A stretch of DNA of 49,384 bases, taken from Anaerolineales bacterium (GTDB taxonomy: Bacteria > Chloroflexota > Anaerolineae > E26-bin7). Position numbers and translations under genes: made by a program. This document shows, piece after piece, positions 6,385 through 39,630 of this stretch. How positions within the stretch are numbered: position 1 is the first letter of the stretch; the number at the start of each line of letters is the position of its first letter. The notes under the pieces were generated by a model. It saw nothing but the letters and a program-made list of their open reading frames with translations, had not been told where the DNA came from and did not search any database. The stretch lies in the NCBI GenBank assembly GCA_004377365.1, contig SOHZ01000288.1, forward strand, positions 1 to 49,384, in the 5' to 3' direction.

Positions 6385-9246
6385 CTATTTTACCACAACT
6401 GCTTCGTTCAATAAAATCCTATCCTCCTGCGCCACGTCTCCAGGGACAGGCTCTTCGGCTTTCCCTTCGACTTCGCTCAGGGCGGGGCTCAGGACAGGCA
6501 AACGCTGGCCAGTCTGCGCGTCGTACAGGCCGACCTCGATAAGGTATTCGCCCGGCGGCGCATCGGTCTTGACGGTGAACTCGTACTCGTCGGCGATAAC
6601 CTCTCCCTCGACCCACCTCGTGGTCGGCAGGGTGCCGTTACCAGGTACGCTGTCGCGCTGTCCCCAGATCCGATTCTCTTTGTCCAACAGATGCACAAAG
6701 ACAGTGTAAGACACTTCCATCTCATCCAAGGCCCGCCAATATAAGGTCAGGTGCATCGCTTCACCGGCTCGCACCTCATCAGGGGTCAGGTCGTAACCCA
6801 AGAACTCTACCTGATCGCCCAGGTTGGCCGAGAGCTGGTGCTGGATCTGCAGGACCTGGAAAACCCTGCTCCGGCCCTCGATGGTCAGCGAGGGGAGAGC
6901 GATCTCACAGACCAGGCTTTCCGTAGCCGTGTCTACCAGGCCCACTGTCAACTGATACTGGCCGGCTGGCGTCTCTGCAGAGAGAGGCAGTTCATAACGA
7001 TCTCGCAGGACCTCGCCCTCTTGCCAAAGAGTGGTGGGATAAGTGCTGGCCACAGGCCGCTCCTTCACCTGACCCCATACCTGGCCAGCCTGATCCCTCA
7101 CACGGATGAGGACGAAATAGTCTTCCTGCACGTCGGCCAGAGCCTGCCAGTACAAGTCCAGGGATACGGCAGCCCCAGGTGTTACGGTTTCACTGGCCAA
7201 GTCATACCCCAGCAGCCTGACCTCTCCCCAGCCCGCTGTAAGCTCGTGTTGGATGCCCAGGGAGGCAACAGACGGCGGTGACAGGGGGCGACTGACCTCT
7301 ATCTTACCTAGCTGAACGGCCGTCCCCTGGGGCGTGCCGTTGGCGTCAAGGACGTCGAGCCTGGCCAGGCTTTCAGGCTCGTAGACGGCTACTTCTACGG
7401 TGTATTGGCCCGGCGGGGTGCCGTCGGGCACCAGCGGGTCATAGACATTGATCACCACCTCATCCAACCACCAACTAGGAGTATACAGATGCCGGTCGTT
7501 GATCAATTGCCGGTCGTCCTGTCCGATGAGATGACCACGATTATCTTTCAGGAACAGGGCAACTTTGTAGTTTCGGTCCACCTCTTGCTGCAATTGCCAC
7601 TGCAGAACGGCCCACATTTTTTTCCCTGCTGGTACGACCCTTGCCTCCACTTCTGCTTCGTTGCTGGTAGCTCCTGCTCCTCGCCCACCATAAGCATAGC
7701 CCACCAGCGAAATCTGGTCGGCAAAGTCCACGTCAATGGGGTTGACTTCCGAGGTCAAAGAAAAAGTCCCGTGGGGTGGCAGTTGATACCAGAGCACCTC
7801 GTAGCCACGAAAGCTCGCCTGGCCCAGGGGCTGGCCGTACTTGTCTAGCAGGAACAGGACCGCACCACGGGGGTCGGTATCGGATTTGTGCCAGCGGATC
7901 CAAAAGACCCGCTCCCGCCCCTGGCACAGCGTGGTCAGTCGCTGGGCCACCGTGTGGATGTCAACGAAAAGGTAGTGGGCTGGCGCCAGACCGTGGTAGT
8001 AATAATCGAAAGGATAGGGCACGTCAATCAGGATGACATCGTTCTTCCCGGCCTGGCTCTCGATGAAATGGGCCAGACCGCGCGTGTCGTCGCCGAAACC
8101 GGCCGGATCGAAATAATCGGCCTGGATAGCGGGAACAAAAGCGGCGAGGAGAAAGATGGCAGACAGCAGCCCAACCACTGGCACCCGCTTCCAGATCTGC
8201 CCGACGGCATAGGCCAGTAGCAGATAGTAGGGTGGGGTAGCCAACATGATGTAGCGGGGGTGGAAGAAGGGCCTGTCGCGCAAAACATAGAAGTACAGGA
8301 GGATAGGCAACGCCAGCCACAGGCACAGCCATATCATTTGAGATTTGAGAGAGGCCAATCCGATGACCAGGCCCAGGACCAGGATGAGGGCTATGCCAGC
8401 CAGGAAGGGAGTGGCTTGGATTAGTTCAGCGGCTGGTCCCAGGCTGAAGCCTTGCCAGACTTCCAGCAGAAAAGAAGGCAGGTCCGGCACCCCCATGGTG
8501 GGGTTCTCATAAGCCACGTACTGTCGCAAAGTGATGCGCATCTGAGGAACGTATAGCAGGGCTATGCCTAGCTGGCTGAGCACCCAACCTCGCAGAATTT
8601 TCAGCCACTTTCCCTGCCGCCAGACTGTGACAAGAACCATCAACCCCAGGAAGGCGTTTTCGGCAATCAGGATAAAGCCAGCCGAGTAGTGGGTGTAGAT
8701 GCTCAGAGCCGACGTCAGCACGTAGCCAATCCACAAGAGCCAGCCACCTTTTCGCCAGGCCCGGTAGAGGAAGTAAGCCGAGGCCGTGGTCAGAAAGATA
8801 GCCATGGTGTACATCCTGGTCTCCTGGGCCTCAGAAACGTAGAAGGGAGCAAAGGCAGCCACAGTAGCCGCCAGCAAGCTGAAGGGGTGATTTGGGATTT
8901 GAGGTTTGAGATTCGTCCCCATTGCCGCACTGAAACGATAGAACAGGGGGATGGTCAGCAGGGAGAAAAAGATGGACAGGAACCTCACGGCGAACTCGCT
9001 GCGCCCGGCTCCCAGCATCCAGAGGTGTAGGGTATAGAAGTACAGGGGAGGGTGGATGTCCATCTCCTTGGCCGTGGCGATGACAGCCAGGCTGCGGCCG
9101 GCCACGTCAATGTTGCGTCCCTCGTCCCACCAGATGTCCTGGGAATCGAGGCGATAGAGACGCAAAGCAAAGGCGCACAACAGTACGAGAAAGATTATCA
9201 CTAGATTCCGGTGGCGTGACATAGGAAATTTACCCATGCTGATCAA
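6385..9246 (-). CDS. GT39/ArnT-like GT-C glycosyltransferase with 3 C-terminal beta-domains
   Basis: 953 aa; LRLYRL..IWWDEG, DIHPPLYF, SEAQETRMY, YTHY motifs; true start probably a few codons downstream. Confidence 0.85.
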   Translation of the reverse strand: MISMGKFPMSRHRNLVIIFLVLLCAFALRLYRLDSQDIWWDEGRNIDVAGRSLAVIATAKEMDIHPPLYFYTLHLWMLGAGRSEFAVRFLSIFFSLLTIPLFYRFSAAMGTNLKPQIPNHPFSLLAATVAAFAPFYVSEAQETRMYTMAIFLTTASAYFLYRAWRKGGWLLWIGYVLTSALSIYTHYSAGFILIAENAFLGLMVLVTVWRQGKWLKILRGWVLSQLGIALLYVPQMRITLRQYVAYENPTMGVPDLPSFLLEVWQGFSLGPAAELIQATPFLAGIALILVLGLVIGLASLKSQMIWLCLWLALPILLYFYVLRDRPFFHPRYIMLATPPYYLLLAYAVGQIWKRVPVVGLLSAIFLLAAFVPAIQADYFDPAGFGDDTRGLAHFIESQAGKNDVILIDVPYPFDYYYHGLAPAHYLFVDIHTVAQRLTTLCQGRERVFWIRWHKSDTDPRGAVLFLLDKYGQPLGQASFRGYEVLWYQLPPHGTFSLTSEVNPIDVDFADQISLVGYAYGGRGAGATSNEAEVEARVVPAGKKMWAVLQWQLQQEVDRNYKVALFLKDNRGHLIGQDDRQLINDRHLYTPSWWLDEVVINVYDPLVPDGTPPGQYTVEVAVYEPESLARLDVLDANGTPQGTAVQLGKIEVSRPLSPPSVASLGIQHELTAGWGEVRLLGYDLASETVTPGAAVSLDLYWQALADVQEDYFVLIRVRDQAGQVWGQVKERPVASTYPTTLWQEGEVLRDRYELPLSAETPAGQYQLTVGLVDTATESLVCEIALPSLTIEGRSRVFQVLQIQHQLSANLGDQVEFLGYDLTPDEVRAGEAMHLTLYWRALDEMEVSYTVFVHLLDKENRIWGQRDSVPGNGTLPTTRWVEGEVIADEYEFTVKTDAPPGEYLIEVGLYDAQTGQRLPVLSPALSEVEGKAEEPVPGDVAQEDRILLNEAVVVK
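6451..6498. repeat. Nested REP-like element (24 bp inside 24 bp), in frame in CDS
   Basis: CTCTTCGGCTTT[CCCTTCGACTTCGCTCAGGGCGGG]GCTCAGGACAGG; encodes PVLSPALSEVEGKAEE. Confidence 0.8.
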
Positions 9247-9269
9247 CTGCTAGAGACCTGAGCAGGAGT

Positions 9270-9298
9270 TTGACACGAATCGCAATTTGGCTTATACT
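9270..9298 (+). promoter_or_regulatory. sigma70-type promoter of the Phd/DUF5678-protease pair
   Basis: TTGACA-17 nt-TATACT, followed by GAGGTG RBS before GTG 9318. Confidence 0.8.
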
Positions 9299-9317
9299 GT
9301 TCATGAGGTGACAGATT

Positions 9318-9740
9318 GTGACCAAAACGATAAGTCTTAAAGAAACCCGCACAACCTATTCCCTTTCCCTCGATGAGACTCAACTTGGCCAAGAGCCTGT
9401 CATCATCGAGCGAGAGGGCCAACCGTTGGCGGCCATTATTCCCATTGAGAAATACCGAGAATTCGTCGCTTGGCAGGAGAGTCGCACCGAAAGACATCGG
9501 CAACTCTCCGCTCTGCAAAAGGAGAGAGAGGCTTTCCACCAACTACGGGATCAACTTTTGAAGACCCACAGAGGTCAATTCGTCGCCGTTCTAGACGGTC
9601 AGGTCGTTGACTCGGATGCAGATAATTGCGAATTGGCTCGGAGGGTCTATAACAAATTTGGCTACGTGCCCATCTACATCCAGATGGTCGAGGAAAAACC
9701 AACGGTGTATGAGATCCCCTCCCCTGAGGTGGTAAGCTGA
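9318..9740 (+). CDS. Phd/YefM-like N-terminal domain fused to DUF5678-like domain
   Basis: EPVIIEREGQPLAAIIPIEKY (Phd-like) + LLKTHRGQFVAVLDGQVVDSDAD (DUF5678-like). Confidence 0.65.
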   Translation: MTKTISLKETRTTYSLSLDETQLGQEPVIIEREGQPLAAIIPIEKYREFVAWQESRTERHRQLSALQKEREAFHQLRDQLLKTHRGQFVAVLDGQVVDSDADNCELARRVYNKFGYVPIYIQMVEEKPTVYEIPSPEVVS

Positions 9741-10117
9741 TGCCTCGTTACGACACCAGTATCCAGCCCCCAGCCCCGTTTGTAGACGTCCTGATTTTGC
9801 ATCCCTCTGACCACGAGCAAACCAGGTACATTCGAGGCAAGCTTGATAGTGGGGCCGACCTCTCTGTGATTCCTGAGGAAGTAGCCGATGAATTGCAACT
9901 CATCCCGGCCAGGGAGATACAAACTCGTAGCTACGATGGTACGGTGCGAGACATTCAGAGCTATTTCGTCGCCCTTGAGATAGAAGGGTATTCTATCCAA
10001 CTCATCGAAGTAGTTGCCTCTCACCGAGCCGATACACTTTTAGGCCGGGATGTTCTGAACCATTTTAGGATCACCCTCGATGGGAAAACGCTCACTTTTG
10101 AGATGACAGATCCCTGA
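9740..10117 (+). CDS. Retropepsin-like (clan AA) aspartyl protease
   Basis: LDSGAD catalytic motif and LLGRDVL motif; translationally coupled to the upstream gene (TGATG). Confidence 0.8.
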   Translation: MPRYDTSIQPPAPFVDVLILHPSDHEQTRYIRGKLDSGADLSVIPEEVADELQLIPAREIQTRSYDGTVRDIQSYFVALEIEGYSIQLIEVVASHRADTLLGRDVLNHFRITLDGKTLTFEMTDP

Positions 10118-10205
10118 GCGCCTACCACAACTGCTCCACTGCCGTCCCCTGTGCTATCTGCTGGCCTATCTTCTTCTCCAACTGTTCCTTGACTCAGCGA
10201 CCTCC

Positions 10206-11186
10206 TCACTCCAGGATCTCCCTGACCACGTAAATGCGCTTGCCCTGGCTCTCGTGGTAGGTGCGCACTACCAGTTCACCCAGCAGCCCCATGGTGATCA
10301 TCTGCACGCCCATGACCATGAGCAGAATGGCCAGCAACAGCAGGGGACGGCTGCCAATGTCCTGCCCCAGGGCCAACTTGACAACGGAAAGGTAGAGGCC
10401 CAAGATACCCCCCAAACCCGACATGGCCAACCCCAGGGAACCAAAGATGTGAATGGGACGGGTGGAGTAGCTGAGCAGGAACCGGACAGTGAGCAGGTCC
10501 AGCATCACCTTGATGGTACGTTTGAGGCTGCCGTACTTGGAGCGGCCAAATTGCCGTGAACGATAATGGACCGGTATCTCAGCTACAGAGACGCCCATCC
10601 AACTGGCCATAGCCGGGATGAAGCGGTGGAGCTCACCGTAGAGGTTGATGTTCTTCACCACCTCGCTCCTGTAGGCCTTGAGGGAGCAACCATAGTCGTG
10701 CAGGTGCACCCCAGTGGTCTCCGAGATGAGACGGTTGGCCACCACCGAGGGCAGACGCCGCGTCAACCAGGCGCTCTTCCAACGTTCCATCCGCCAGCCG
10801 CTGACTACATCGTAGCCTTCCTCCAGTTTCTCCAGGAGCCTGGGGATATCTGCCGGATCGTTCTGCAAATCGGCGTCCATAGTGACGACCACCTGGCCCC
10901 GAGCGTACTCGAAGCCAGCGGCGAAGGCGGCCGTCTGGCCAAAGTTGCGGCGGAAGCGGATTACCTTCAGCCGCTTGTCTTGGGCCTGGAGGCCCCTCAG
11001 CAGCTCAAAGCTCCGGTCGGTGCTGCCATCGTCCACGATGATGATCTCGTAACTCTGCTCTAGTGGCTCCAGGGCCTCCTTGAGTTGAGCGTAGAGGGGC
11101 TCCACGCTTTCTTCCTCGTTGAAAAGCGGGATGACAATAGAAAGTTCGATTTCATCGTTCATAGGCTCATCCTTCTTCTGCTGCAT
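10206..11186 (-). CDS. GT2 polyprenyl-phosphate glycosyltransferase (ArnC/DPM1-like)
   Basis: SIVIPLFNEE, VDDGSTD, RRNFGQTAA, MDADLQNDP, HRFIP, two C-terminal TM helices. Confidence 0.9.
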   Translation of the reverse strand: MQQKKDEPMNDEIELSIVIPLFNEEESVEPLYAQLKEALEPLEQSYEIIIVDDGSTDRSFELLRGLQAQDKRLKVIRFRRNFGQTAAFAAGFEYARGQVVVTMDADLQNDPADIPRLLEKLEEGYDVVSGWRMERWKSAWLTRRLPSVVANRLISETTGVHLHDYGCSLKAYRSEVVKNINLYGELHRFIPAMASWMGVSVAEIPVHYRSRQFGRSKYGSLKRTIKVMLDLLTVRFLLSYSTRPIHIFGSLGLAMSGLGGILGLYLSVVKLALGQDIGSRPLLLLAILLMVMGVQMITMGLLGELVVRTYHESQGKRIYVVREILE

Positions 11187-12219
11187 AGTCCTGTGCTCCC
11201 TTCAGCACGTAGATGATCCCGCCGATCAAGCCTGGGGTGAATATACTGATAACGTAAACCAGCAGTGATAGCGACAGGGCCGTCTCCCGGGGCATGCCAG
11301 CCTGGGTGAAGAGAAAGACGTAAGCGCCCTCCCTCACCCCCAGACCGGCGAAAGATACAGGCAATATGGTGACTATGGAAGTGATAGGCACAAAAAGGAA
11401 ATAGTACCATATCGAGACCCGATCACCCAAGGATAGACCGAGCAGGTAATTCATGGTAATCAGCGAGATGTTAAAGACCAGAGACACGCCCAAGGTCTTG
11501 CCAACCGCGGCGACATTGTAGCCATGAAGTGACTCGTAGAATCGCTTGAGCCCTTCGATGATTCCTTCGGCTTTCCCTTCGACTTTGCTCAGGCCATGCC
11601 CTGAGCCTGTCGAAGGGACAGACCCCTGCTTCTGACTAAAGGAGGCCAGGGGTTTCAGGCGCTCTCCCAGGCTCTGCCACAGTCGCTGGTTGAGGAGGAG
11701 CCACACCGAGACTAGGCTCCCGACGAAGAGGAGCACGGTGAAAGCGATCATCCACGGCTCGACCAACTGATAGCCAAAGGCCAGGGCCACCACGGCCATA
11801 GCCTGTAAGACGATGAGGCCAAAGAAGCGGTCGGCGAGGACCGTACCGGCCGACTCTGCTGTCTTATGAGTGTACCTTGATAGCTCATACATGCGAACGG
11901 GGTCGCCGCCGAAGCCGGTGGGGAGCACGTTGGTGAAAAGGAAGCCGATGAAGTAGAGGTCGATCAGTTGTCTCAGAGGCACCTCCACCTCCAGGGCTGA
12001 GAGCAAGACCTGCCAGCGGTAGGCCCTGACCACAATACCCAACAGGGCCACGACCAGAGCTGCCAGGAGATAGCCCGGCTGGACCTGCAGGAGCTTTTCC
12101 AGAGTCTCCTGCAAACCTATCTCCCTCAACAAGAGGACGATAAAGATCAAACTCACAATGACCTTGGCCAAATCTAGAAGTCTCTTTTTATTCATTGTCT
12201 GTCTTCCCTGGGGAATCAC
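11167..12219 (-). CDS. Lysylphosphatidylglycerol-synthase TM / UPF0104 flippase-like protein
   Basis: RAYRW, LPTGFGGDPVR, DRFFG, PVSFAGLGVREG motifs; likely start 12195. Confidence 0.85.
   Translation of the reverse strand: MIPQGRQTMNKKRLLDLAKVIVSLIFIVLLLREIGLQETLEKLLQVQPGYLLAALVVALLGIVVRAYRWQVLLSALEVEVPLRQLIDLYFIGFLFTNVLPTGFGGDPVRMYELSRYTHKTAESAGTVLADRFFGLIVLQAMAVVALAFGYQLVEPWMIAFTVLLFVGSLVSVWLLLNQRLWQSLGERLKPLASFSQKQGSVPSTGSGHGLSKVEGKAEGIIEGLKRFYESLHGYNVAAVGKTLGVSLVFNISLITMNYLLGLSLGDRVSIWYYFLFVPITSIVTILPVSFAGLGVREGAYVFLFTQAGMPRETALSLSLLVYVISIFTPGLIGGIIYVLKGAQDYAAEEG
11564..11617. repeat. Composite REP-like hairpin, in frame in flippase gene
   Basis: CCTTCGGCTTT-CCCTTCGACTTTGCTCAGG-CCATGC-CCTGAGCCTGTCGAAGGG; encodes PSTGSGHGLSKVEGKAEG. 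Confidence 0.8.
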
Positions 12220-14537
12220 TCCCCCTTGACCATGATCTCGCTCAACAGGGCCTTATCATCCAATACTTGCCCATCCTGGTCCACAATGGTCAGGCGCTGG
12301 CCGTCGGCCAGGCGATACATCCCCACTTCGATCCAGTACTTACCCGGTGGAGTGTCCTCGCCGACGACGAAAGCGTGCTTATCCTTGACTACCTCATCCT
12401 GGTCCCAGAAGGAGGTTGGGTAATAGCCGTTGACAGGCTGGCCATCATGCTGCCCCCAGATGGTGCCCTCCTCATCCACCAAATGAACAAAGACGGTATA
12501 ATCCTCTTCCATTTTCCTTTGAGCCCGCCAGTACAAGGCCACATTGATGGTCTCACCAGCCTTGACCTCGGTCTTGTCTACCTTGTAACCGGTCAGAGAC
12601 ACCTGCCTGCCCTGAGCGGAGTCGAAGGGGTGGGCCATGTCGAAGGCTACTGGCGTTCCTCCGGAGTAGTGCGGCTCCTGTTGGGTGGTGACCTTGCCCT
12701 GAGCCACAGTGACTCCGTGGAGGAGGTGGCCGTCCTTGTCAAAAGCAGGTAGGGCCTCGCCTGTGGAGCGGTCGTAGACGCCCACTTCTACTCGGAAGCG
12801 GCTGGGCGCTTTGGATTCGGGCAGGACGTACATCCCATAGGTGTCCTTTATCACCCCCCCGACCTGCCATAGGCTGGTGGGGTAAGAACCCATCCCAGGA
12901 TAAGTGTCCTTCTGAGCGATCACTTCCTCGTCACGACCGAGGATGTGGACGAACACGTTGTAATCTTGCTCCATCTCGGCCCGGGGTTGCCAGTACAGGG
13001 TGACGCTCAGGGGATCGCCCCGTCTGACCACCTTCTTATCCAGTTGGCAGGCCAGCAACCTTGTCTTATCACCAAAGTTGATGTCGAGGTGATGGGCTTC
13101 GGCCGGGATGTCCTCGGCGGTGATAACAGGCGGCTTGGCATAGGTTGGGGCAATGTAGACGAAGGGGCATAAGACGGCCAGGAGAAACAATGCTCCGCCG
13201 ACCACGCCGGCCAACATCCCATTGTACCGCTGCGGCACGAACTGGCTGAGCCCCAGGAAAATAAAGATAGAAATAGCCGGGATAGCTGGAAACAGGTAGC
13301 GGCCTTGAGCGCCGGTTTGGATCTGCATGAACCTGAGCAGGGAAGCAAAGAGAAGCAGAAACCATAATCCAAGTAGCAACAGGCTAAGCAAGTTTGATCT
13401 GTCTAGCTGCTTCCTCTGTAGGGCTTTGAACTTTTCAAATTGGCTGATGGCGAGGACTAGAAGGCCCACGATGGATAGACGCACCATTACCGCCAGGAGC
13501 TTGTAAAAGATTTCATCAATCACTATGTTCATCCAGCCAAAGACGGCCCAGAAGGATATCTCCAGGCCCCAGAACTCTTCGTACAATTCAATGAGGCTGG
13601 GTTGGGGCTCCCGAAGACCAACAGCCGCCAGCCATACATTGGAAGCTAAGGGGTGACGATAAAGAATCCAATTTCTTAAGTACGCCCATCCAGCTATCAG
13701 CAGGACTATGGAGAATACGATCATGCCCCATTTGATCAAGCGACCAACAGAGCGCTGTTGGATGGCTCGGATGGCGAGCGTTAAAGCCGCCAGGGGCAAA
13801 AGGGCCAGGGAGCTAATCTTGGAGAGCAGAGCCAGGCTCAGGGTCACGCCCAGCCAGATCAGTCGCCCTCTGGTCGCTCCCCGTTTCAAGAGTCTGACTA
13901 TCCCCAGGAGCACCAGCGCGGAAAAGGTAGTCACCATAGCGTCATTACCTACTCTGGCGCTGATGAAAATGAATTGAGGGTTGAAAGCATTGATAGCAGC
14001 CGCACCCAAAGCCAGGGGCTTCCAATGGGGGAAGATCTCCAGAGCGATGAGATAGGTAGCGAGCACAGTTACTCCACTCAACAGCACCGTGAACAGACGG
14101 AGAATACGTATAGCCAAAGCTGTGCCGTGGTAGTTGAACACCTCAGTGTCAAGGTGGATGATCCTGTTCTTGTTGCCGGGCCAATGGGGCACCCCGGCAA
14201 CACAGTGCGGGTTATGCCAAATCAAGCTGTCCGCGTCGTCTGTGTCAATCCAGAATGTGAGCAGGGCCGATGTGAGATGGTACAAAGGGGGGTGATGGCC
14301 GACTGTGCCAGCCACCGGGTTCTTAGAAGGATCCAGATGCAGCACGGGCAAACCACGACCGTCGGCTATGTGCTTCACATATCCATAGTGAGAGTCTTCG
14401 TCTGGTGTCTCGATAAGGGGAGTGACTACGCTGTAGATAACCCCTAACGCCAGGAAAGAAACGATTATGAGACTGATACCCAAGTGTTGTCTAATCGAAA
14501 ATATTATAGATCTCATTCTTGGCCTAGTTTCTGTCAA
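12216..14537 (-). CDS. DUF2142/ArnT-like GT-C glycosyltransferase with 2 C-terminal beta-domains
   Basis: 773 aa; TPLIETPDEDSH, HHPPLYH, AFNPQF..GND, QGRYLFPA. Confidence 0.8.
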   Translation of the reverse strand: MTETRPRMRSIIFSIRQHLGISLIIVSFLALGVIYSVVTPLIETPDEDSHYGYVKHIADGRGLPVLHLDPSKNPVAGTVGHHPPLYHLTSALLTFWIDTDDADSLIWHNPHCVAGVPHWPGNKNRIIHLDTEVFNYHGTALAIRILRLFTVLLSGVTVLATYLIALEIFPHWKPLALGAAAINAFNPQFIFISARVGNDAMVTTFSALVLLGIVRLLKRGATRGRLIWLGVTLSLALLSKISSLALLPLAALTLAIRAIQQRSVGRLIKWGMIVFSIVLLIAGWAYLRNWILYRHPLASNVWLAAVGLREPQPSLIELYEEFWGLEISFWAVFGWMNIVIDEIFYKLLAVMVRLSIVGLLVLAISQFEKFKALQRKQLDRSNLLSLLLLGLWFLLLFASLLRFMQIQTGAQGRYLFPAIPAISIFIFLGLSQFVPQRYNGMLAGVVGGALFLLAVLCPFVYIAPTYAKPPVITAEDIPAEAHHLDINFGDKTRLLACQLDKKVVRRGDPLSVTLYWQPRAEMEQDYNVFVHILGRDEEVIAQKDTYPGMGSYPTSLWQVGGVIKDTYGMYVLPESKAPSRFRVEVGVYDRSTGEALPAFDKDGHLLHGVTVAQGKVTTQQEPHYSGGTPVAFDMAHPFDSAQGRQVSLTGYKVDKTEVKAGETINVALYWRAQRKMEEDYTVFVHLVDEEGTIWGQHDGQPVNGYYPTSFWDQDEVVKDKHAFVVGEDTPPGKYWIEVGMYRLADGQRLTIVDQDGQVLDDKALLSEIMVKGE
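12606..12629. repeat. 24-bp REP-like element in frame (PFDSAQGR)
   Basis: CCTGCCCTGAGCGGAGTCGAAGGG. Confidence 0.8.
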
Positions 14538-17142
14538 CAGTCAATGTTCCCAACAATATAGCGTCATCCGTCAGGCGCAATCCAGGCTGATCATAGGCAG
14601 GCAGACGTTCTCCTGTAGCGAGCTGGTACAACCCCACTTTGAGCTCGTACCTTCCAGAAGGCACACCTAGCCCAATTACGAGCCGGTGCTCATCTTTGAC
14701 GATCTCTCCTACATCCCAGATAGAGGTCGGATAACGTCCGCTCTGCGGCTGGTCATCATGTTGAGCTTCAATATGGTCATCTGGACCTAGCAGGTGGGTG
14801 AAAACTGTGTAGTCTTTATCAATCTTCTTCCGTGCTTGCCAGTACAAAGTCAGATTGATCGTGTCACCCGGTTTAAGAGCACGGCTCCTCAGGTCGTAGC
14901 CGCGAAAGATAATCTCATCTCCCAGGTTGACTTTCATGGGAAATGGGATAGAGCTAGCGTTAATGAACTCGCCGATGATCTTTACTGTCCCCAGTGTAAT
15001 TTTATTATCCAGTAACCCCGATTCGGAATCCACAATGATGGGCAGTCGCTGTCCCGTCGATTTCTGATATAAACCAACTTCAAAGGTGTATTTCCCCGGG
15101 ATAGCCCCCGGACCAACTTTGATCTTGTACTGATCGGGCACAATTTCACCCGGACGCCAGAGAACAGTGGGATAGGCCCCTTGTAAGGGTTGCACATCTG
15201 TCTGCCCCCGAACCTGCCCTTTGCTGTCCAGCAAGTGCACAAAGACTTCATGATTTCTTTTCATCTTCGATACTGCTTGCCAGTAGAGATCTAGCCTGAT
15301 TTCATTCCCTCTCATAACCTCATACGGAGCCAGGTTGTAGCCGACTAGCCTCAACTGGCCGTTGAAATCAGCCTTGAGGGGGTGAGGGGGGATGACATAG
15401 GGGGAGAAGAAGTCAATAGGAGAGGAGAAAGGCCACTCGTAAGCGATGAGCATATTGTTTGAATCCCGCAGTTCAAAGGTTGATTCTTGGTTAACACGTT
15501 CTATCAACATTTCTCTGAGGGAGTGATCTAGAGGGCTCAGGATGTAAGCTGTGCCTTTGCTCTGAGAAGCGCGATCCAGCAGGATAAATGAGTGCCCCCC
15601 TTCATTATCAGGAGACAGAAAACATACAGCTTTCTCCTCGCCAGAGATCAACGACATGGAATCATCGGCCATCGAAAGAGAAACCGCATCAGTATACACC
15701 TGGCTAAGGAGATAGGTAACGGTGGGATAGGCATACATCTCCACAGGTAGATAGACCGTGTGATTCTGTCCTTGCTGAATCACACGTCTGGCTAGAGCAG
15801 CCTTGTCTGCATCGAAAGCATAGTATGTTTCGGGTTGGTAAGCCCAAACGTTGAAATAGTCATGGTAGGTCCGCAAGCCGCCAAGTCCGAGGAAAGCCAC
15901 AATCAAACCTGGTAGCCATTTCACGGTGGGCCAGCCCATCCAAGACGTCAATTTAGCCCAAAGGATGGATAGGCCAATAGCCGATAGGATATAGACAGCC
16001 GGTGCCGCTCCAAGAGAGCGCAAGGTATTAGGAGCGTCTGTGGAGAAAACCGTAGCCGAGAGCATCACCCCGATCCAAAGCAGAGTGAGCCCGTATTGAG
16101 GCTTATTTAACCGGTGGATGGCTATTACGATGCCTATCCAAAAACCGATGGATGAGATGGTGTTTAGGACAGGGCGGCAAGGCAGGTTATGTCTCCACTG
16201 CCAATCGCCTTGATCAACAAACATACGCAGCACCTTGCCTAGGTTAGACAATGTTGCTAAGATGATCTCTCGATATTCTGACGAGATAGCCAAAATGGAC
16301 ACATCCTTGCCCCGACCACTCCAGGCAAAGGGATGGGTTTGAAAATAGCAACCCAGAGGAGCAAAGAGGGCCAAGGAGACAAGCGTCAATAGAAGAGCTC
16401 CCTTTAGGCGATCAGAGAATCGGGGCACTTGGGAGGCAGGCTGACCGGAATCCCCGCTGCTAGTAGTTGCCGAAAGTTGATTCCCCCGCCTCTTCATGGT
16501 AGCCCAGCTTTTCTTCAGGCATTCCCAAAGGATGAAAGCCAAAAGCACCAGTGGCATAAGCCGGGCCGCGATATAAGTATAGGCACTCATCCCAAGAAGA
16601 ACACCGGTTCCCAGAAAGAAGCCCTTCTTCCCGGTGAACCACCCCTGCCAGAATAGACAAAGGGTCATCACGATGAATAAGGGAAGCAGAATAGTCCTAA
16701 AACCGATGCGGCTGAAGTGTACGTGCCAATAGGAAGTTGTCAGGCCGGTAGCGGCCAGCAAGGCAATTCGCCTCGCCTCTTCACTTCCAACGGAGGCGAA
16801 CATCAATTTGGTCAAAACATATAACATTGGAATTGTAGACAACCCAACTAAGGCCGAAACGATGCGCAACGCAAAGGGGCTAGCGCCTAGCATTTTAATA
16901 GAAATTGCCTCCAGATAGATGAAAAGAGGTTCTCGCCCTCCATTGCCCTCAAAAAACAGCGGGTGCCATCCGGCCTGCAAAATCCTTATCGCATCCAGAC
17001 CATTGAAGGCTTCATCATGGTATAATCCAGGTGGCACGTCATTCAGGCGATAGAGCCTGAGGAAAGCAGCCACAAGAATTAGTAGCCCCAGAAGGGCCAG
17101 ATCCTTTCTACCATCCCTGCCAAGTTTTGCGAACCGTTTCAC
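14524..17142 (-). CDS. ArnT/GT39-like GT-C glycosyltransferase with 2 C-terminal beta-domains (lower GC)
   Basis: 872 aa; LRLYRL..VPPGLYHDEAFNG, GREPLF, HVHFSRIGFR, YTYIAAR. Confidence 0.85.
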   Translation of the reverse strand: MKRFAKLGRDGRKDLALLGLLILVAAFLRLYRLNDVPPGLYHDEAFNGLDAIRILQAGWHPLFFEGNGGREPLFIYLEAISIKMLGASPFALRIVSALVGLSTIPMLYVLTKLMFASVGSEEARRIALLAATGLTTSYWHVHFSRIGFRTILLPLFIVMTLCLFWQGWFTGKKGFFLGTGVLLGMSAYTYIAARLMPLVLLAFILWECLKKSWATMKRRGNQLSATTSSGDSGQPASQVPRFSDRLKGALLLTLVSLALFAPLGCYFQTHPFAWSGRGKDVSILAISSEYREIILATLSNLGKVLRMFVDQGDWQWRHNLPCRPVLNTISSIGFWIGIVIAIHRLNKPQYGLTLLWIGVMLSATVFSTDAPNTLRSLGAAPAVYILSAIGLSILWAKLTSWMGWPTVKWLPGLIVAFLGLGGLRTYHDYFNVWAYQPETYYAFDADKAALARRVIQQGQNHTVYLPVEMYAYPTVTYLLSQVYTDAVSLSMADDSMSLISGEEKAVCFLSPDNEGGHSFILLDRASQSKGTAYILSPLDHSLREMLIERVNQESTFELRDSNNMLIAYEWPFSSPIDFFSPYVIPPHPLKADFNGQLRLVGYNLAPYEVMRGNEIRLDLYWQAVSKMKRNHEVFVHLLDSKGQVRGQTDVQPLQGAYPTVLWRPGEIVPDQYKIKVGPGAIPGKYTFEVGLYQKSTGQRLPIIVDSESGLLDNKITLGTVKIIGEFINASSIPFPMKVNLGDEIIFRGYDLRSRALKPGDTINLTLYWQARKKIDKDYTVFTHLLGPDDHIEAQHDDQPQSGRYPTSIWDVGEIVKDEHRLVIGLGVPSGRYELKVGLYQLATGERLPAYDQPGLRLTDDAILLGTLTVDRN

Positions 17143-17154
17143 AGTGATGATCCT

Positions 17155-19482
17155 CTACGATCCCTTCACGCGCACCTTGGTCAACAGGACGCGACTGTCA
17201 ATCCAATGTCCCGCTTCATCCAGAAGGCCCAACCGCTCTCCTGTAGCTGGCAGATAGAGCCCCACTTCGATATCGTAGACGCCGGGAGGGGTGTCGGGCT
17301 CGACGAGCAAGTGATATTCGTCCATCAAGACCTGCCCCTGGTTCCAGGTTGAGGTCGGTACCGCTCCTCCCTGTGGCTGGCTGTCCACCTGGGCCCAGAT
17401 GCGGTCTCGCTCCCCTAGGACGTGGGTGAACACAGTGTAATCCCTTTCTATCTCGGCCAGGGCTTCCCAGTAGAGGGTCAGGTGGATTTCCTCACCTGGC
17501 CCAACCGCTCGCCCCTCCAGGGCATAGCCAATGAGGGCAATCTGGTCCCCGAAATTAAAGCGCACAGGATTGGGCACACTACGTCCTGAGCCTGTCGAAG
17601 GGTCGCTCCCCGCGTGAGGCAGGACCTCTATCCTGTGAAAACGGACGTTGTCTCCAAGGGACTCTCCCTGGGACCCATAAACCGCCAAGCGCTTCCCGCT
17701 GTCAAACTCGTACAGCCCCACTTCGAGCTGGGCCGAGCTGGGGGTGAAGGCCGTGGGCGGTACGGCGATGGTGTACACATCGGCGATGGCATCCCCTGCC
17801 CGCCACAGCCGGGTTGGATAGGTGCCCTGGCCCGGGAAGGTATCTTGTGAGGCCAACACCAGATCGTTCTCATCCAGAAGATGAACGAAGACGCTGTAGT
17901 TCCTTTCCATCGGGGCCAAAGCCTGCCAGTACAGGGTGACATCGAGGCTCTCCCCTGGCCGGACTGTCTCCCGACCTACCTCGTAGCCCAGGAGCTTTAT
18001 CTGGTCATCGAAGGTGATGGCCATAGGATTTGGTATCTTCTCCAGATTGGTTTCTGAGAGGAGAGGCGGCCCTTCGGCTATGCTCAGGACATGCCTGGCG
18101 TAGGCTGGCGCGATGTAGCGAAAGGGACTGATAACGGCAATGGCCAGCATAACCAAGCCCAATATGCCAGCCAGGGACATGACGGCCTGCCGAGGCACCC
18201 ACTGGGCCAGACCCGTGAACAGTAGGATGGAAATGGCCGAGATGGCCGGATACATCAATCGCCCCTGGGAAGCGCGGGTCATCTGAGTCCAGCGTACCAA
18301 GCCGGCCAGGACAACAGCGATCCACAAGAGCAGGAACAACAGCCAGGGCCAGCTCAGTGTCTCCTCTCCTCTCAGTTGCTTAAAGACCAGCAGCAACAGC
18401 CCCACCGCTCCCAGCAGAGCCAGCCCGTCGAAGGCCAGGTAGAGCCAGGGCTCGGCCAGAATGTTGAACCAGCCAAAGAGAGCCCAGAAGGACATTCTCA
18501 GCCCTTTGAATTCTGCCAGGAGTTCGAGCAGGGATGGCCTGTAGACCCGGGTGCGGAAGAGGATGGCCATGATCTTCATGCCAAGGGGGTCACCGTACAG
18601 CAGCCAGTTCCGGGCGTACCACCAGCCGCCCACGGCCAGGGCCACGATAGACACGATGGTCATCCACCCGACGAAAGAAATCAGTCGCTGGCGGTGGAGG
18701 GCTACCACCCCCAATACCACAGCGGCCAGTGGCAGGAGCATCAGACCAGTCAGCTTGGTCAGCGAGGCCAGACCGATGACAAGGCCCAGCAAGATCAAGC
18801 GACCCCTTGAAACCTCCCTCCTGGCCAGAACCACCAGCAACCAGGCCGCCAGGGCAAAGAGAACGATCACCAGGTTGTCGTTGTTGATGGTCCCGCTGAT
18901 GAAGGCGAACTGTGGATTGAAGGCGTTGATGACCGCCGCGCCGATGGCCAGCCCCTCTGCTCCCTCCCTCAAAGTTGGGGGAGGGCCGGGGTGGGGGCGC
19001 TGGGGCATGATCTGTCGAGCAATACAATAGGTTGCCAGCACCGTGGCTGCTCCCATCAGCACCGAGAGCAAACGCACCAGGTGCACCGCCAGGGTCACCC
19101 CTCGATAGGGAAAGCTCTCCTCAGCCGAGTGAACGACCATGTTCACGTTACCGCTCGCCGTGGGGACGCCAATCTGGGCGTGAGGGTTGTGCCAGACGAA
19201 ATCCGTCAAGGGGCCTGTGTTTATCCAAAAGGTGACCAGAGCCCCCAGAGTATAATAGAGGGGCGGCTGGTGCACCTCTGCCTGGATGTCCGGTACCGGC
19301 CCGGTGATGACTGGCAATCCCTCCCCATCAGCGAGGTGTTGGACGAAGAAATAGTGCTGAAGCTCGTCGGGGGCCTCAAAGATGGGTGTGACCACGCTGT
19401 AAGTGGTGCTCAGCAACACGAAGGCAACAAGGATGACTGCGATAGCTTTGTGCTGATTTGCTGGTTGGGTTAATCTGTTCAC
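17155..19482 (-). CDS. DUF2142/ArnT-like GT-C glycosyltransferase with 2 C-terminal beta-domains
   Basis: 775 aa; TPIFEAPDELQH, HQPPLYY, INNDNL, SQGRLMYPA; close paralog of 19479..21896. Confidence 0.8.
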   Translation of the reverse strand: MNRLTQPANQHKAIAVILVAFVLLSTTYSVVTPIFEAPDELQHYFFVQHLADGEGLPVITGPVPDIQAEVHQPPLYYTLGALVTFWINTGPLTDFVWHNPHAQIGVPTASGNVNMVVHSAEESFPYRGVTLAVHLVRLLSVLMGAATVLATYCIARQIMPQRPHPGPPPTLREGAEGLAIGAAVINAFNPQFAFISGTINNDNLVIVLFALAAWLLVVLARREVSRGRLILLGLVIGLASLTKLTGLMLLPLAAVVLGVVALHRQRLISFVGWMTIVSIVALAVGGWWYARNWLLYGDPLGMKIMAILFRTRVYRPSLLELLAEFKGLRMSFWALFGWFNILAEPWLYLAFDGLALLGAVGLLLLVFKQLRGEETLSWPWLLFLLLWIAVVLAGLVRWTQMTRASQGRLMYPAISAISILLFTGLAQWVPRQAVMSLAGILGLVMLAIAVISPFRYIAPAYARHVLSIAEGPPLLSETNLEKIPNPMAITFDDQIKLLGYEVGRETVRPGESLDVTLYWQALAPMERNYSVFVHLLDENDLVLASQDTFPGQGTYPTRLWRAGDAIADVYTIAVPPTAFTPSSAQLEVGLYEFDSGKRLAVYGSQGESLGDNVRFHRIEVLPHAGSDPSTGSGRSVPNPVRFNFGDQIALIGYALEGRAVGPGEEIHLTLYWEALAEIERDYTVFTHVLGERDRIWAQVDSQPQGGAVPTSTWNQGQVLMDEYHLLVEPDTPPGVYDIEVGLYLPATGERLGLLDEAGHWIDSRVLLTKVRVKGS
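17579..17602. repeat. 24-bp REP-like element in frame (PSTGSGRS)
   Basis: CTACGTCCTGAGCCTGTCGAAGGG; the 8 aa are absent from the paralog linker (VLPREDSPVPNP). Confidence 0.85.
18070..18093. repeat. 24-bp REP-like element in frame (HVLSIAEG)
   Basis: CCCTTCGGCTATGCTCAGGACATG; paralog reads YIAPAYAKPVLLSE versus YIAPAYAR[HVLSIAEG]PPLLSE here. Confidence 0.85.
18959..18997. repeat. C/G-rich hairpin repeat in frame (PHPGPPPTLREGA)
   Basis: CCCTCCCTCAAAGTTGGGGGAGGG hairpin + CCGGGGTGGGGG; about 13 aa absent from both paralogs. Confidence 0.7.
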
Positions 19483-21896
19483 GGGCTCACCACGCGCACC
19501 TTGCTCAAGAGGACCCGGTTGTCACGCAAGCGTCCTCCCTCGTCCAGAACCCCCAATCGTCCTCCCGTAGCGGCCAGGTAGAGCCCTACCTCGATATCGT
19601 AGACGTCGGGCGGTGTGTCAGGTTTGGTGACCAGATCGTAATGGTCCTCAACCATCTGGCCCACCTGCCAGGACGAGGTTGGCGCAACGCCTCCTTGCGG
19701 CTGGCTGTCCACCTGCGCCCAAAGGCGATCCTCCTCACCCAGCACGTGGGTAAAGACGGTGTAGTCTTCTTCCATCTCGCCCAAAGCCCGCCAGTATAAA
19801 GTGAGGTGGATGGTCTCTCCCTGCCGCGCGGTGCGCTTGTCCAGGTTATAGCCTACGAGGGCGACCCGGCCCTCGAAATCGAAATCCACCGGGTTGGGTA
19901 CCGGGCTATCCTCACGAGGCAGGACGGCTACCTGGTGAAAGCGCACGTTGTCGCCCAGGGATTGACGATCCGGCCCCGTGGCCACCAACCGCTCCCCGCT
20001 GGCGAAATCGTAGAGCCCCACCTCGAAGCGGCCCGTGCAAGGTGCGAAAACCGTGGGAGACAATGTCAAGACGTAACGGTCAGCGAAGGCGTCGCCCACT
20101 CGCCACAGGCGGGTCGGGTAGGTCCCCAGACCTGGATAGGTGTCCCGCTGCGCGATGACCAGGTCGTTCTCATCCAACAGGTGCACAAAGACAGTGTAAT
20201 CCCTGTCTATCTCGGCCAACGACTGCCAATAGAGGGTGACCTCCACGCTCTCTCCTGGCTTGATCTCTTCGTTGCCAGCCTCGTAGCCCAGCAGCCTGGC
20301 TTTACCTTCGAAAGTGACATCAAGACGGTCAGGTATCCCTTCGAGTTCGGCCTCTGAGAGCAGGACTGGCTTGGCGTAGGCTGGCGCAATGTAGCGGAAA
20401 GGGGCGATGGCGGCCAGAACAAGCATCAGACCGCCGACGATGCCCAGCAGCCACTTCTCATAACGACGCGGCACCCATTGGCTCCACCCCAGGGCCAGCA
20501 GGACAGAGATGGCCGAGATGGCCGGGAACATGAGCCGGCCCTGGGAGGCTTTGGTGATCGTGGTCCAGCGGATCAGGGCCAGGAAAAGGATGATGGGCCA
20601 GGTCAGGAGGGTGAGGAGGGAGTAACGGGTAGTAAGTGATGAGTCGTCCCTCGAAACCTGAAACGTGAAACGTGTCACCAATGCACGCCCCAGGTCGATC
20701 ATCAGGCCGACAAGGCCTAGGATGGCTAAAGCGTTGAGCACCCAGTATGCTGCTGGCTCCATGGCCACGTTGACCCCGCCGAAGAGCCCCCAGAAAGTCT
20801 TGACGAACCCTTCCCATTCGCCCAGCAGTTGTCGCAGAGTCGGTTGGGGGAGACGGGGTCCGACGATGGCCACGAAGGTGTTCAGGCCCAGTGGGTCGCG
20901 GTAGAGTAACCAGTTCCTCATGTACCACCAACCGGCTATGGCGGAGGAAATAGCCAGGACCGTGACAAAGCTTCCAAAAAACCAAGCAATGCGACGGGAC
21001 ACCGACTCAGCCCGTATTCTCCAGGCTGAGAAGGCCAAGCCCAGGGCTGTCAGAGGAATCAGGCCCAGGGCGCTGGCTTTGGATAAGGCCCCCAGCCCGA
21101 TGACCAGGCCCAACAATGCACAATGACCAAATCCCAAATCCCAAATCCTAAATCCCAATTGGTCATTGGGCATTGGCTCCGAAGGTCTGCTGCGGCGGCT
21201 ATGGAAAGCCGCCCTACTGCGCACCAGACGGATCAGGAGAAGCAAAGTGAGCGAACAAAAGAGAATCGTCAGGTTATCGTTGTTGACAGAGCCGCTGATG
21301 AAAGGGAACATGGGCACAAAGGCGTTGAAAGCGGCCGCGCCAGCGGCCAGCGTTTTCTGTTCCGGAAAAACCTCTAAAGCGATCAGGTAGGTGCAGAGCA
21401 CGGTGCCTGCTCCCATCAGCACCGAAAGGAAGCGCACGATGTGCACCGCCAGGGCCGTGCCCCGATAGGGAAAGCTCTCTCGCTCCGAGTGGACGACCAT
21501 GTTGAGGTTGCCGTCGGCCGTTTCGACGCCGATGTCGGCGTGGGGGTTGAGCCACCGCACCTCCGTCAAGTTGGAGGTGTCAATCCAAAAGGTGGCCAGA
21601 GCCCCCAGGGCGTAGTAGAGGGGGGGCTGGCTGCCCTCCTGCCGCCACGGCTGCTCGATGCGAGGGTCCTGGACTGGCAGTCCTCCGCCGTCGGCCAAGT
21701 GTTGGACGAAAGGATAGTGCCACAGCTCGTCAGACGCCTCAAAGAGGGGCGTGACCACGCTGTAGACCGTGCCCAGAATGATGAAGCTGATCAGGATAAG
21801 AGTGATGGCTCGATGCTGCTGCACGATCTCAACCAGCGATGATAGCTTGTCATGAGCGCAGTCGAATGGCTTGTCATGAGCATGGTCGAATGGCAT
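19479..21896 (-). CDS. DUF2142/ArnT-like GT-C glycosyltransferase with 2 C-terminal beta-domains
   Basis: TPLFEASDELWH, QEGSQPPLYY, VNNDNL, SQGRLMFPA; ATG 21896 with GAGG RBS preferred over 21923. Confidence 0.8.
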   Translation of the reverse strand: MPFDHAHDKPFDCAHDKLSSLVEIVQQHRAITLILISFIILGTVYSVVTPLFEASDELWHYPFVQHLADGGGLPVQDPRIEQPWRQEGSQPPLYYALGALATFWIDTSNLTEVRWLNPHADIGVETADGNLNMVVHSERESFPYRGTALAVHIVRFLSVLMGAGTVLCTYLIALEVFPEQKTLAAGAAAFNAFVPMFPFISGSVNNDNLTILFCSLTLLLLIRLVRSRAAFHSRRSRPSEPMPNDQLGFRIWDLGFGHCALLGLVIGLGALSKASALGLIPLTALGLAFSAWRIRAESVSRRIAWFFGSFVTVLAISSAIAGWWYMRNWLLYRDPLGLNTFVAIVGPRLPQPTLRQLLGEWEGFVKTFWGLFGGVNVAMEPAAYWVLNALAILGLVGLMIDLGRALVTRFTFQVSRDDSSLTTRYSLLTLLTWPIILFLALIRWTTITKASQGRLMFPAISAISVLLALGWSQWVPRRYEKWLLGIVGGLMLVLAAIAPFRYIAPAYAKPVLLSEAELEGIPDRLDVTFEGKARLLGYEAGNEEIKPGESVEVTLYWQSLAEIDRDYTVFVHLLDENDLVIAQRDTYPGLGTYPTRLWRVGDAFADRYVLTLSPTVFAPCTGRFEVGLYDFASGERLVATGPDRQSLGDNVRFHQVAVLPREDSPVPNPVDFDFEGRVALVGYNLDKRTARQGETIHLTLYWRALGEMEEDYTVFTHVLGEEDRLWAQVDSQPQGGVAPTSSWQVGQMVEDHYDLVTKPDTPPDVYDIEVGLYLAATGGRLGVLDEGGRLRDNRVLLSKVRVVSP
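21113..21217. repeat. Heptamer array (CAAATCC)n with inverted arms plus GTAG-type REP hairpin, in frame
   Basis: CAATGCA CAATGAC CAAATCC x3 TAAATCC ... TGGTCAT TGGGCAT; minus strand GTAG-GGCGGCT-TTCCAT-AGCCGCC at 21194-21217. Confidence 0.75.
21846..21893. repeat. Tandem pair of 24-bp REP-like units
   Basis: CTTGTCATGAGCGCAGTCGAATGG / CTTGTCATGAGCATGGTCGAATGG; encodes PFDHAHDK PFDCAHDK. Confidence 0.85.
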
Positions 21897-23070: not shown

Positions 23071-23213
23071 CTCTCCCACCACTTGGAATCCTTCCGCAAA
23101 ACGAAAGGCTGGCGGCGTGCACTCCCTACAAGCCGACCTCGTTTGGTCGCTCGACGCCTTCCGCGAGACCAGACGGTGCTGTCAGCCAGAGCCGTGTATT
23201 TGCAGACCCCGTT

Positions 23214-23570
23214 CTACTCAAGTTCACGCGGTTCTAGTAGAAGCCCGATCCCATCAAGAATCTCGTGCACTCGCCTACTCGAGAGTGTCCCGATCTTTTC
23301 GCCCAATTGGCTCTTATCCACCGTGAAAATCTGAGATACGTTGACGACACTCTGTTTCGGCAGATTGGCCTCTTTTGGTTCAAGGAGGACATTTCCTGGA
23401 GCAGCGGCACGTTTGAGGTTGGAGGTTAGCGCGCAAACGACGACCGTGTTGATACGACTGCGGTTGAACACGTTGTTCTGGACGACCACGTGGGGATGTC
23501 GGTATCCGGGTTCCGAGCCCGAGGGTTCGTCCAGGTCAATCCAGAAGATGTCGCCCTGGTTGATCACCAT
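23214..23570 (-). CDS. mazF: MazF/PemK toxin (mRNA interferase)
   Basis: QGDIFWIDL.EPSGSEPGYRHPHVVVQNN.FN...VVCALTSN...SVVNVSQIFTVDK. Confidence 0.9.
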   Translation of the reverse strand: MVINQGDIFWIDLDEPSGSEPGYRHPHVVVQNNVFNRSRINTVVVCALTSNLKRAAAPGNVLLEPKEANLPKQSVVNVSQIFTVDKSQLGEKIGTLSSRRVHEILDGIGLLLEPRELE

Positions 23571-36889: not shown

Positions 36890-37297
36890 TCATTGCGCTC
36901 CCAGGTATTGTTCGACGAGTTCCAGAACCTCGGTCGCCAAAGCGATAGCTCCTTCGGCGTCCCGGTCATCATATACTTCGGCTGGCACGCCGCCAGGCAG
37001 CCCATTAGGGTATCGAGTGGGGATGTAGAAACGATCCAACTTGCCCACCTGCGAGGTCAGAGAGGCAAAAACTTCCTGGTGCTCTCCACAGCGTTCGCAC
37101 AACTCTATGACCGAGTGGCCAGTTACGAATCGCTCTCCCTGTCGAAAAAGAAAGGCTTTAAGGGCTTTCTCGGCACTCTGCTGGGCACTGAAGCAGGCGG
37201 TGGCATAGAATTGGCCCTCAGCGTTGTACTTGGCCACTTCAAGGTCGTATTGGGCTTGTTTAAGCCAACGCGCGGCTTCAGCTACTGGATCCTTCAT
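36890..37297 (-). CDS. HEPN domain protein
   Basis: RWLKQA.YDL, ACFSAQQSAEKALKA, GHSVIEL, YIPTRYP. Confidence 0.9.
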   Translation of the reverse strand: MKDPVAEAARWLKQAQYDLEVAKYNAEGQFYATACFSAQQSAEKALKAFLFRQGERFVTGHSVIELCERCGEHQEVFASLTSQVGKLDRFYIPTRYPNGLPGGVPAEVYDDRDAEGAIALATEVLELVEQYLGAQ

Positions 37298-39562: not shown

Positions 39563-39630
39563 GTTGCCCCCTTGTCACTCGTTATTCATTGCTCATTACT
39601 TGCTGGCTAGGTGTTCAATCTTGGTGTCCT

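Follow-up and report, generated by a model that had tools for sequence, protein, structure and literature searches.

A 49,384-nt contig of an Anaerolineales bacterium (SOHZ01000288.1; hereafter the window, contig C285 of the source assembly G000) carries closely similar 24-nt sequences inside several of its genes, which raises the question of what these units are, how they came to lie in coding DNA and how the host genes tolerate them. An initial annotation of the window had proposed a palindromic mobile element of codon length that is written in frame into proteins as 8-aa (amino acid) peptides. We found that the units are inserted in quantised lengths, nest within one another, pass a selection filter in genes and consist of two half-sites conserved across the phylum, and we consider it likely that they form a family of ultra-short, non-coding and non-autonomous insertion modules, copied as A...B units and filtered in genes. 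The 24-nt module is among the smallest mobile-looking DNA elements known and has inserted recently into intact genes.

The source assembly comprises 5.87 Mb in 676 contigs, across which the core motif occurs 278 times. Using a strict pattern of half-site A, a spacer of 2–3 nt and half-site B, 264 units were counted in G000 and none in shuffled controls, while a position matrix built from 267 copies returned 354 sites scoring at least 12 bits, compared with 0 in the block-shuffled genome; the motif thus recurs far beyond the window. Each unit is 24 nt long, CCCTTCGRC-(2-3 nt)-GCTCAGGRCA-(3-4 nt), and is made of two 12-nt half-modules, namely A (CCCTTCGRC plus spacer; 769 copies of the conserved part vs ~146 expected) and B (GCTCAGGRCA plus tail; 513 copies vs ~31 expected). 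Information content stayed near 2 bits across 25 positions and dropped to background on both sides, which indicates a discrete unit and not the core of a longer repeat. Of the A–B spacers, 170 measured 3 nt and 78 measured 2 nt, with the remainder clustering at 11, 14–16 and 26–27 nt, and these longer-spacer classes turned out to be composites when the sequences were read. In A-A-B-B composites, a unit lies within the spacer of another in the same orientation; in A-b-a-B composites, a reversed unit (lower case) lies within a forward one, and 31 copies of one 48-nt hairpin form, which are inverted doublets, were found. The cluster grammar comprised 276 AB, 49 AABB, 37 AAB, 12 AbaB, 11 ABB, 9 ABAB and 7 AAABBB. 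Adjacent unit pairs exactly 24 nt apart occurred 11 times, and arrays with a 24-nt period, some of the 2-nt-spacer form, were also present in other genomes. The half-modules and the nesting, together with the phylum-wide spread described below, go beyond the initial annotation, while the palindromic nature that it had assigned to the unit was not borne out: three single units folded no better than their shuffles (z +0.64, −0.53 and −0.48), the consensus ends are by inspection not inverted repeats of each other, and among the cases tested against shuffles only the inverted pair at 11555–11625 folded as a hairpin (z −5.7).

Within the window, the consensus given by the initial annotation matched exactly at 12606–12629(−) and 18070–18093(+), with 0 matches expected from 100 shuffles, and allowing up to three mismatches added 6463–6486 and 11575–11598 (0.01 expected). 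A scan with the 16-nt core and at most one mismatch found six window sites, including a diverged tandem pair at 21846–21893 (0.19 expected; none of 100 shuffles reached six), and 17579–17602 and 48080–48103 are variants with a 2-nt instead of a 3-nt spacer. The units were thus recovered at the places first proposed, and all the intragenic copies lie, as had been stated, inside coding sequences, namely long minus-strand open reading frames (ORFs) with Pfam domains.

To define filled and empty sites, the window, seven further unit-rich G000 contigs and the units of three congeners (the same-genus genomes G001, G002 and G003; dS among the compared congeners ~0.4) were set against orthologous DNA. 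Five of the six intragenic window sites proved to be insertions of 24 or 48 nt relative to exact empty sites in congeners, which supports the codon-length insertion module surviving in coding DNA that had been postulated. In the PMT_2-type gene 6385–9246(−), an A-A-B-B composite of two nested units at 6451–6498(+) adds 48 nt to the C-terminal tail (aa 917–932 of 953), and the orthologues in G001 and G003 lack these 48 nt; one metagenome contig of run X3 skips 6439–6487. In the LPG_synthase_TM gene 11167–12219(−), aa 201–223 are encoded by a nest at 11551–11617 (no strand assigned; grammar AAABba), which combines a forward unit at 11575–11598 with a reverse 2-nt-spacer unit at ~11600–11617. Here G001 and G002 hold an older unit and are 24 nt shorter, and G003 lacks 30 nt, G000 having an extra reversed unit nested in the older one. 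The single unit at 12606–12629(−) in gene 12216–14537(−), an exact consensus match read as PFDSAQGR, faces a 24-nt gap in G001 and G003. Gene 17155–19482(−) hosts two single units, a 2-nt-spacer unit at 17579–17602(−) read as PSTGSGRS (aa 628–635) and one at 18070–18093(+), read from the opposite strand as HVLSIAEG (aa 464–471), and each is a 24-nt gap in all three congeners; HVLSIAEG is in addition an exact 8-aa indel relative to both paralogues, as claimed from the first inspection.

Two further places in the window could not be scored in this way. The two diverged tandem units at 21846–21893(−), with a 24-nt period (CCATTCGAC...GCTCATGACAAGC) and position weight matrix scores of 25.8 and 23.3 bits, lie at the N-terminal extension of ORF 19479–21923(−), overlapping the end of the GT4 gene 21874–23082(−); the G001 sequence is unrelated there, and 21819–21889 is replaced in metagenome contigs of runs X2 and X3. 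The 2-nt-spacer unit at 48080–48103(+) sits in the loop of a hairpin with a 10-bp stem (~48071–48080 / 48108–48117; −12.1 kcal/mol, z −1.4), and its orthologous site was not recovered in the congener comparison. This copy had been called intergenic, and it does lie between xseB and a pseudouridine synthase gene, but it may instead belong to a called ORF, within its first 22 codons. In metagenome contigs, which are too short for firm alleles, the unit positions were hot spots of loose ends, and a few strain-level skips were seen.

In total, 39 distinct single-gap filled/empty events were obtained among the four congeners. The event sizes were 24 nt (16 events), 48 nt (8), 36 nt (3), 72 nt (2), 96 nt (1) and 120 nt (1), so that 31 of 39 are multiples of 12, and the remaining eight measured 21 (twice), 23, 30, 39, 47, 51 and 54 nt. 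By a hand tally from which two chance 'Ab'/'BA' patterns were excluded, 24 of 30 G000 clusters are longer or shorter than the orthologous G001 site, which at the dS of these genomes indicates fast turnover. At naive sites, complete units were gained without similar sequence beforehand, and the junctions could slide by just 0–3 nt, which indicates that no target duplication is made. Insertions of units with the 2-nt spacer also measure 24 nt, their tail being unconserved. Sites outside called genes gave gaps of 24 and 120 nt, besides 23 and 47 nt (hand tally), which indicates that the 24-nt length is a property of the element and not of selection alone.

Insertion into existing copies was also seen directly. 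At one site, G000 has AB where G001 has A[AB]B, with the inner unit differing from the outer, and another forms a series in which G002 and G003 are empty, G001 carries AB and G000 carries AAABBB; inner and outer units of nests differ in the spacer and at variable positions. The unit was also caught within another dispersed repeat, an element of ~130–150 nt resembling a miniature inverted-repeat transposable element (MITE), with GGAGTAGC... terminal inverted repeats and 30 pattern matches in G000 (contigs C165, C183, C216, C241, C242, C28, C33, C40 and others): 23 copies read GGAGTAGCGAA followed directly by ACTYGTTTCG, 7 carry exactly 24 nt at that junction, and further copies contain AABB composites. 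A second longer repeat, located on contigs C112, C128, C19, C386, C495, C664, C30, C349, C357 and C358, has AGCATCCTGAGTAG-type inverted ends, one end resembling the B half, and includes several A-like motifs (CCCTTCGATAC) and a central 2-nt-spacer unit.

We then compared the positions of the units with gene structure. Called genes contain 137 of the 264 strict units (52%) compared with 84% of the DNA being coding, whereas 48% lie outside called genes, which make up 16% of the genome, an approximately 3-fold intergenic enrichment. Among the in-gene units, each of the five stop-free frames was used by 23–32 units, while the sixth frame, which contains a TGA within CCTGAGC, was used by 0 of 137, for which the chance is (5/6)^137, or ~1e-11. 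At polymorphic in-gene sites, the net length difference was a multiple of three in 18 of 19 cases (hand tally), the exception lying in codons 2–9 of a called ORF. The complete avoidance of the TGA frame is the best available evidence for translation of the in-gene units, as opposed to their removal. Only 4 of 30 in-gene clusters fell in a Pfam envelope compared with a coverage of 35% (P=0.007, binomial; hand tally over 21 host proteins), and three host genes compared with G001 had dN/dS values of 0.24, 0.12 and 0.14, indicating purifying selection. Rickettsia palindromic elements are likewise in-frame insertions in intact genes that leave tolerated peptides, but they are palindromes of ~100–150 bp known from Rickettsia only, and in-frame insertion is all that the 24-nt, non-palindromic unit has in common with them.

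The product of gene 17155–19482(−), a 775-aa GT-C-type membrane glycosyltransferase with a C-terminal beta domain (Pfam PMT_2 plus TMEM260-like; dN/dS 0.14 vs G001), hosts two units and another short repeat and shows where the peptides are accommodated. HVLSIAEG and PSTGSGRS were found in 0 of 52 homologues. An AlphaFold (AF2) model built from a 53-sequence alignment had a mean predicted local distance difference test score (pLDDT) of 92.3, with low-scoring blocks at residues 161–170 (54), 461–470 (59; residues 466–468 below 50) and 621–640 (81 and 79), and these dips coincide with the short repeat at 162–174, HVLSIAEG and PSTGSGRS, respectively, the last of which is located in an inter-domain stretch (pLDDT 79–81). 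Other dips occur at the N-terminus and in block 61–70 (pLDDT 64 each), and blocks 101–110, 301–320 and 371–380 (82–84) are about as low as 621–640. The description of all insertion places as linkers, loops or termini therefore fits the three inserts of the modelled protein but may not hold for the nest at 11564–11617, which is inside the LPG_synthase_TM Pfam envelope.

Other repeats occupy such places as well. The short repeat just mentioned, at 18956–18998, is a different GC-rich hairpin repeat (CCCTCCC...GGGGAGGG type) lying in frame in a low-pLDDT loop (aa 162–174), of which only ~4 related copies were found in G000; it is missing from G003, carries an A-B unit in its loop in G001, and 41 nt of it are replaced by 2 nt in contigs of four metagenome runs. 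At the G002 counterpart of 12606, a different small palindromic insert (GGATTGCAAATCC-type hairpin) occupies the very position that the unit has in G000, and a hairpin of this type was also found near a RAYT-like gene on G000 contig C8 (RAYT, REP-associated tyrosine transposase; REP, repetitive extragenic palindromic). Linkers seem to collect several repeat families.

To evaluate how far the motif extends, we surveyed 301 Anaerolineae and a separate phylum-wide sample of 251 genomes with a reversed pattern as the control, which gave 0 in each genome surveyed. The strict motif was present in 111 of the 301 Anaerolineae, with a maximum of 233 copies, and the 21–22-nt motif in 46 of the 251 genomes, including 35 of 223 from other Chloroflexota classes. 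Positive or negative status runs by whole families, and within the genus of the window the distribution is patchy, with strict totals of 264, 201, 28 and 4 in G000, G001, G002 and G003, a difference of ~60-fold. Since both half-sites are kept across very deep divergence, this distribution argues for a conserved sequence-specific factor that would recognise the half-sites, or for horizontal spread of the units together with such a factor.

Based on these observations, the likely family of insertion modules would work as follows. Whole units, or whole composites with A on the left and B on the right, would be copied to new places, in either orientation, with no target-site duplication and little target specificity, but with a marked tendency to land in or beside existing copies, which would generate A[AB]B and A[ba]B nests and 24-nt tandem arrays. 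With a length that is a multiple of three and five of six frames open, inserts could survive in tolerant loops, linkers and termini, where they would be translated as 8-aa peptides or peptides growing in 4-aa steps, whereas those that hit the TGA frame or a structured core would be purged. The two conserved halves would be recognised by a sequence-specific activity, either a protein or an RNA, which copies the unit in trans, because 24 nt cannot encode anything. A bolder version, in which a phylum-conserved machine reads both half-sites, copies DNA in fixed quanta of 12 or 24 nt and pastes it without target duplication, is put forward tentatively, and we hold it to be rather doubtful. If true, it would represent a mode of mobility unlike DDE, HUH, serine or tyrosine transposition, the units would be the smallest self-propagating DNA known to live routinely inside coding sequence, and they would continually supply new loop peptides to proteomes throughout Chloroflexota.

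Several points weigh against this account. No mobilising gene was found, so that active transposition is not established. Every event is inferred from comparisons among metagenome-assembled genomes (MAGs) of 76–91% identity, and the polarity of gain and loss is unrooted, save where two or three congeners and the 52 distant homologues agree. Genes were predicted with a crude codon-score caller, by which the 84% coding share of G000 was called, and translation is deduced from frame and length statistics alone. Some length changes, namely the 12-nt steps and the A-only or B-only duplications (37 AAB and 11 ABB clusters), fit local slippage better, and slippage probably contributes the 12-nt steps. 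A preference for hairpin loops or palindrome centres was not significant, with 2 of 18 naive sites compared with 14% of random sites, and no fixed target was found; four hairpin-loop cases (48080, a site on C525, the MITE-like site and the loop of the other hairpin repeat in the G001 orthologue of the window gene) remain anecdotes. A bias in intergenic context among convergent, divergent and tandem neighbours was not found either.

Among the alternatives, the one that survives best, although we regard it as unlikely, is that the units are of the REP/REPIN type, in which units, especially the 48-nt inverted doublets, serve as hairpin substrates moved via single-stranded DNA by a RAYT/IS200-like HUH tyrosine transposase that another part of the genome encodes. 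REPs resemble the units as short, abundant and long-persisting non-autonomous repeats that form inverted doublets, and insertion without target duplication, the 31 doublets of one conserved form and the strong folding of the pair at 11555–11625 are all consistent with this explanation. PMC3733652 also records REPs that lie within ORFs and encode amino acids. In addition, G000 has 12 matches to Y1_Tnp, the profile of IS200 and RAYT transposases, some of them RAYT-like by reading and two near a unit. However, new insertions are most often single units, and these do not fold, while a REP is an imperfect palindrome of 20–40 bp, and the GTAG or CGTC tetranucleotide given as the REP hallmark at one end in the same text (PMC3733652) is by inspection absent from either end of the consensus. 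REPs are mainly extragenic, and the Chloroflexota units are enriched outside called genes (48% of strict units vs 16% of the genome), although 52% are intragenic. In Pfam profile searches of 31 relatives, Y1_Tnp matched 23 irrespective of the unit count; G009 (47 units, 87% complete) and G027 (33 units, 84% complete) gave no match, and many zero-copy genomes have the domain. Of the 12 Y1 genes of G000, 3 have a cluster within 1.5 kb, approximately the chance level given the density, and the RAYT-like subfamily adjoining units was not found with a protein query in G001 (201 units), G002 or G003. At the Pfam-family level in these 31 genomes, no cognate RAYT was found to be flanked by or co-distributed with the units, and the HUH/RAYT link suggested at first gained no support. 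The accompanying statement that the window encodes no transposase agrees with a scan of 33 window ORFs, in which no transposase domain turned up.

Somewhat less probable again is that the units are remnants of an insertion sequence (IS) or MITE, of which A and B would be the outermost end parts, with an IS transposase moving emptied end-pairs or leaving footprints. Binding sites of transposases usually measure 22–24 nt, composites bounded by A...B are copied whole, and units occur within two MITE-like families that have terminal inverted repeats, in one case similar to the B half. Yet no longer element bounded by A...B was found, as 14 orphan pairs separated by 60–6000 nt share only one 70-nt repeat, A and B are not mutual inverted repeats by inspection, and in the MITE-like family the unit is itself the insert (23 empty vs 7 filled copies). 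Known MITEs such as Nezha, Correia/NEMIS and ERIC are likewise non-autonomous, dispersed and sometimes co-transcribed or translated with host genes, but in PMC3733652 they are characterised by terminal inverted repeats, target-site duplications and sizes of tens to hundreds of bp, whereas the units are shorter and show neither such repeats (by inspection) nor such duplications (slide 0–3 nt).

We consider it improbable that the units represent a motif selected by the host, either a DNA-uptake signal or the binding site of a conserved protein, which accumulates by biased recombination or gene conversion. Uptake sequences (USS/DUS) are also short, conserved and over-represented motifs that occur in both orientations and all open frames, as the units do, and the conservation of both halves across phylum classes and the 3-fold intergenic enrichment would suit this explanation too. 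But uptake sequences arise chiefly by substitution and drive, whereas the units are exact 24-nt indels of the motif alone, not substitutions in existing sequence, they nest and form tandem arrays, and they are patchy among close relatives within one genus. The least probable account, purely local minisatellite dynamics in which 12-nt modules slip at a few founder sites without dispersal, would fit the 12-nt length steps, the AAB, ABB and AA forms and the 24-nt tandem arrays, but as the sole process it is already contradicted by naive sites that gain whole units without prior similar sequence, by inner and outer nested units that differ in spacer and variable positions, and by hundreds of dispersed loci.

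Several other candidates were tried for a mobiliser or an origin and rejected. One of 31 relatives had a match to the IS91-type Y2 transposase (PF04986), G000 had none, and reverse transcriptases numbered only two in G000, one of them in a cassette resembling a diversity-generating retroelement (DGR), with no evident link to the units. No Rfam family matched in the window or in locus L101, 0 of 31 tRNA/tmRNA genes carry a unit, and the CRISPR repeats of the genome are unrelated.

For the family of insertion modules that we favour, the closest precedent is the small dispersed repeats (SDRs) of Nostocaceae. SDR4, SDR5 and SDR6, from the work of Elhai et al. in 2008, reportedly range from 21 to 27 nt and nest; to our knowledge, no mobiliser for the cyanobacterial SDRs has ever been identified, and the question of how 20–30-nt repeats move has been open since SDRs were described. 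An SDR is a dispersed repeat of ~21–27 nt with filled and empty sites, and the Chloroflexota unit has 24 nt and 39 such events. According to the SDR literature (PMC5861425, PMC4390886, PMC3116915), SDRs share with the unit a size of ~24 nt, a dispersed, insertion-like and non-coding nature and the lack of a known mobiliser, and both occur in varied contexts, including the inside of other repeats. The hosts differ, Nostocaceae for SDRs and Anaerolineae for the unit, and the likeness is one of description; PMC5861425 reports that SDRs were not found outside Nostocaceae. A further difference lies in the target, since SDR5 inserts precisely within the HIP1 octamer, according to PMC4390886, and nothing comparable was found for the Chloroflexota unit.

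In the literature, supplementary files not being covered, neither this motif nor a Chloroflexota element of this kind was found to be described. Compared with known very small mobile repeats, the 12-nt A/B half-module grammar, the A^nB^n nesting at the centre, the phylum-wide conservation and the quantified survival in coding regions are new. The dataset is much larger and cleaner than that for SDRs, with hundreds of copies per genome, many polarised filled/empty sites and a simple grammar, and the hundreds of positive and negative genomes across the phylum allow the mobiliser to be sought by association and the mechanism to be tested with oligonucleotides. The units also show how selfish DNA adds short peptides to loops of functioning proteins, a route that can be quantified. 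For annotation, the family accounts for contig breaks and for odd 'low-complexity' peptides in MAGs of Chloroflexota: 72 of 547 module clusters in G000 lie at gene edges or contig ends, many strict matches being within 50 nt of a contig end, and the repeat is a probable cause of breaks in their short-read assemblies.

Some neighbouring features of G000 were recorded in passing. A DGR-like cassette at C98:333–3413, composed of a four-helix-bundle Avd-like ORF and a reverse transcriptase, stands beside an IS200-like Y1 gene, and a unit cluster lies 50 nt downstream. C394:7160–7560 holds a 24-nt-period array of an unrelated unit (…GCTCACGGCGGATCACA…), which immediately follows a RAYT-like gene at a contig end. 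In the window, 947–21923 and 39553–41757 contain a series of at least seven large paralogous GT-C-type membrane glycosyltransferase genes (PMT_2, DUF2079, DUF2142 and TMEM260-like) set among sugar-nucleotide genes, and long-linker GT-C proteins are among the most unit-rich hosts, both here and on other contigs. At 9318–9740, 23214–23570, 36890–37601, 42148–42417 and 26584–30228, the window also has several genes of toxin-antitoxin type (Phd/YefM, PemK/MazF, HEPN plus nucleotidyltransferase, and YafQ) and encodes a NACHT-WD40-pentapeptide protein of 1214 aa that includes an NA-iREase1 domain.

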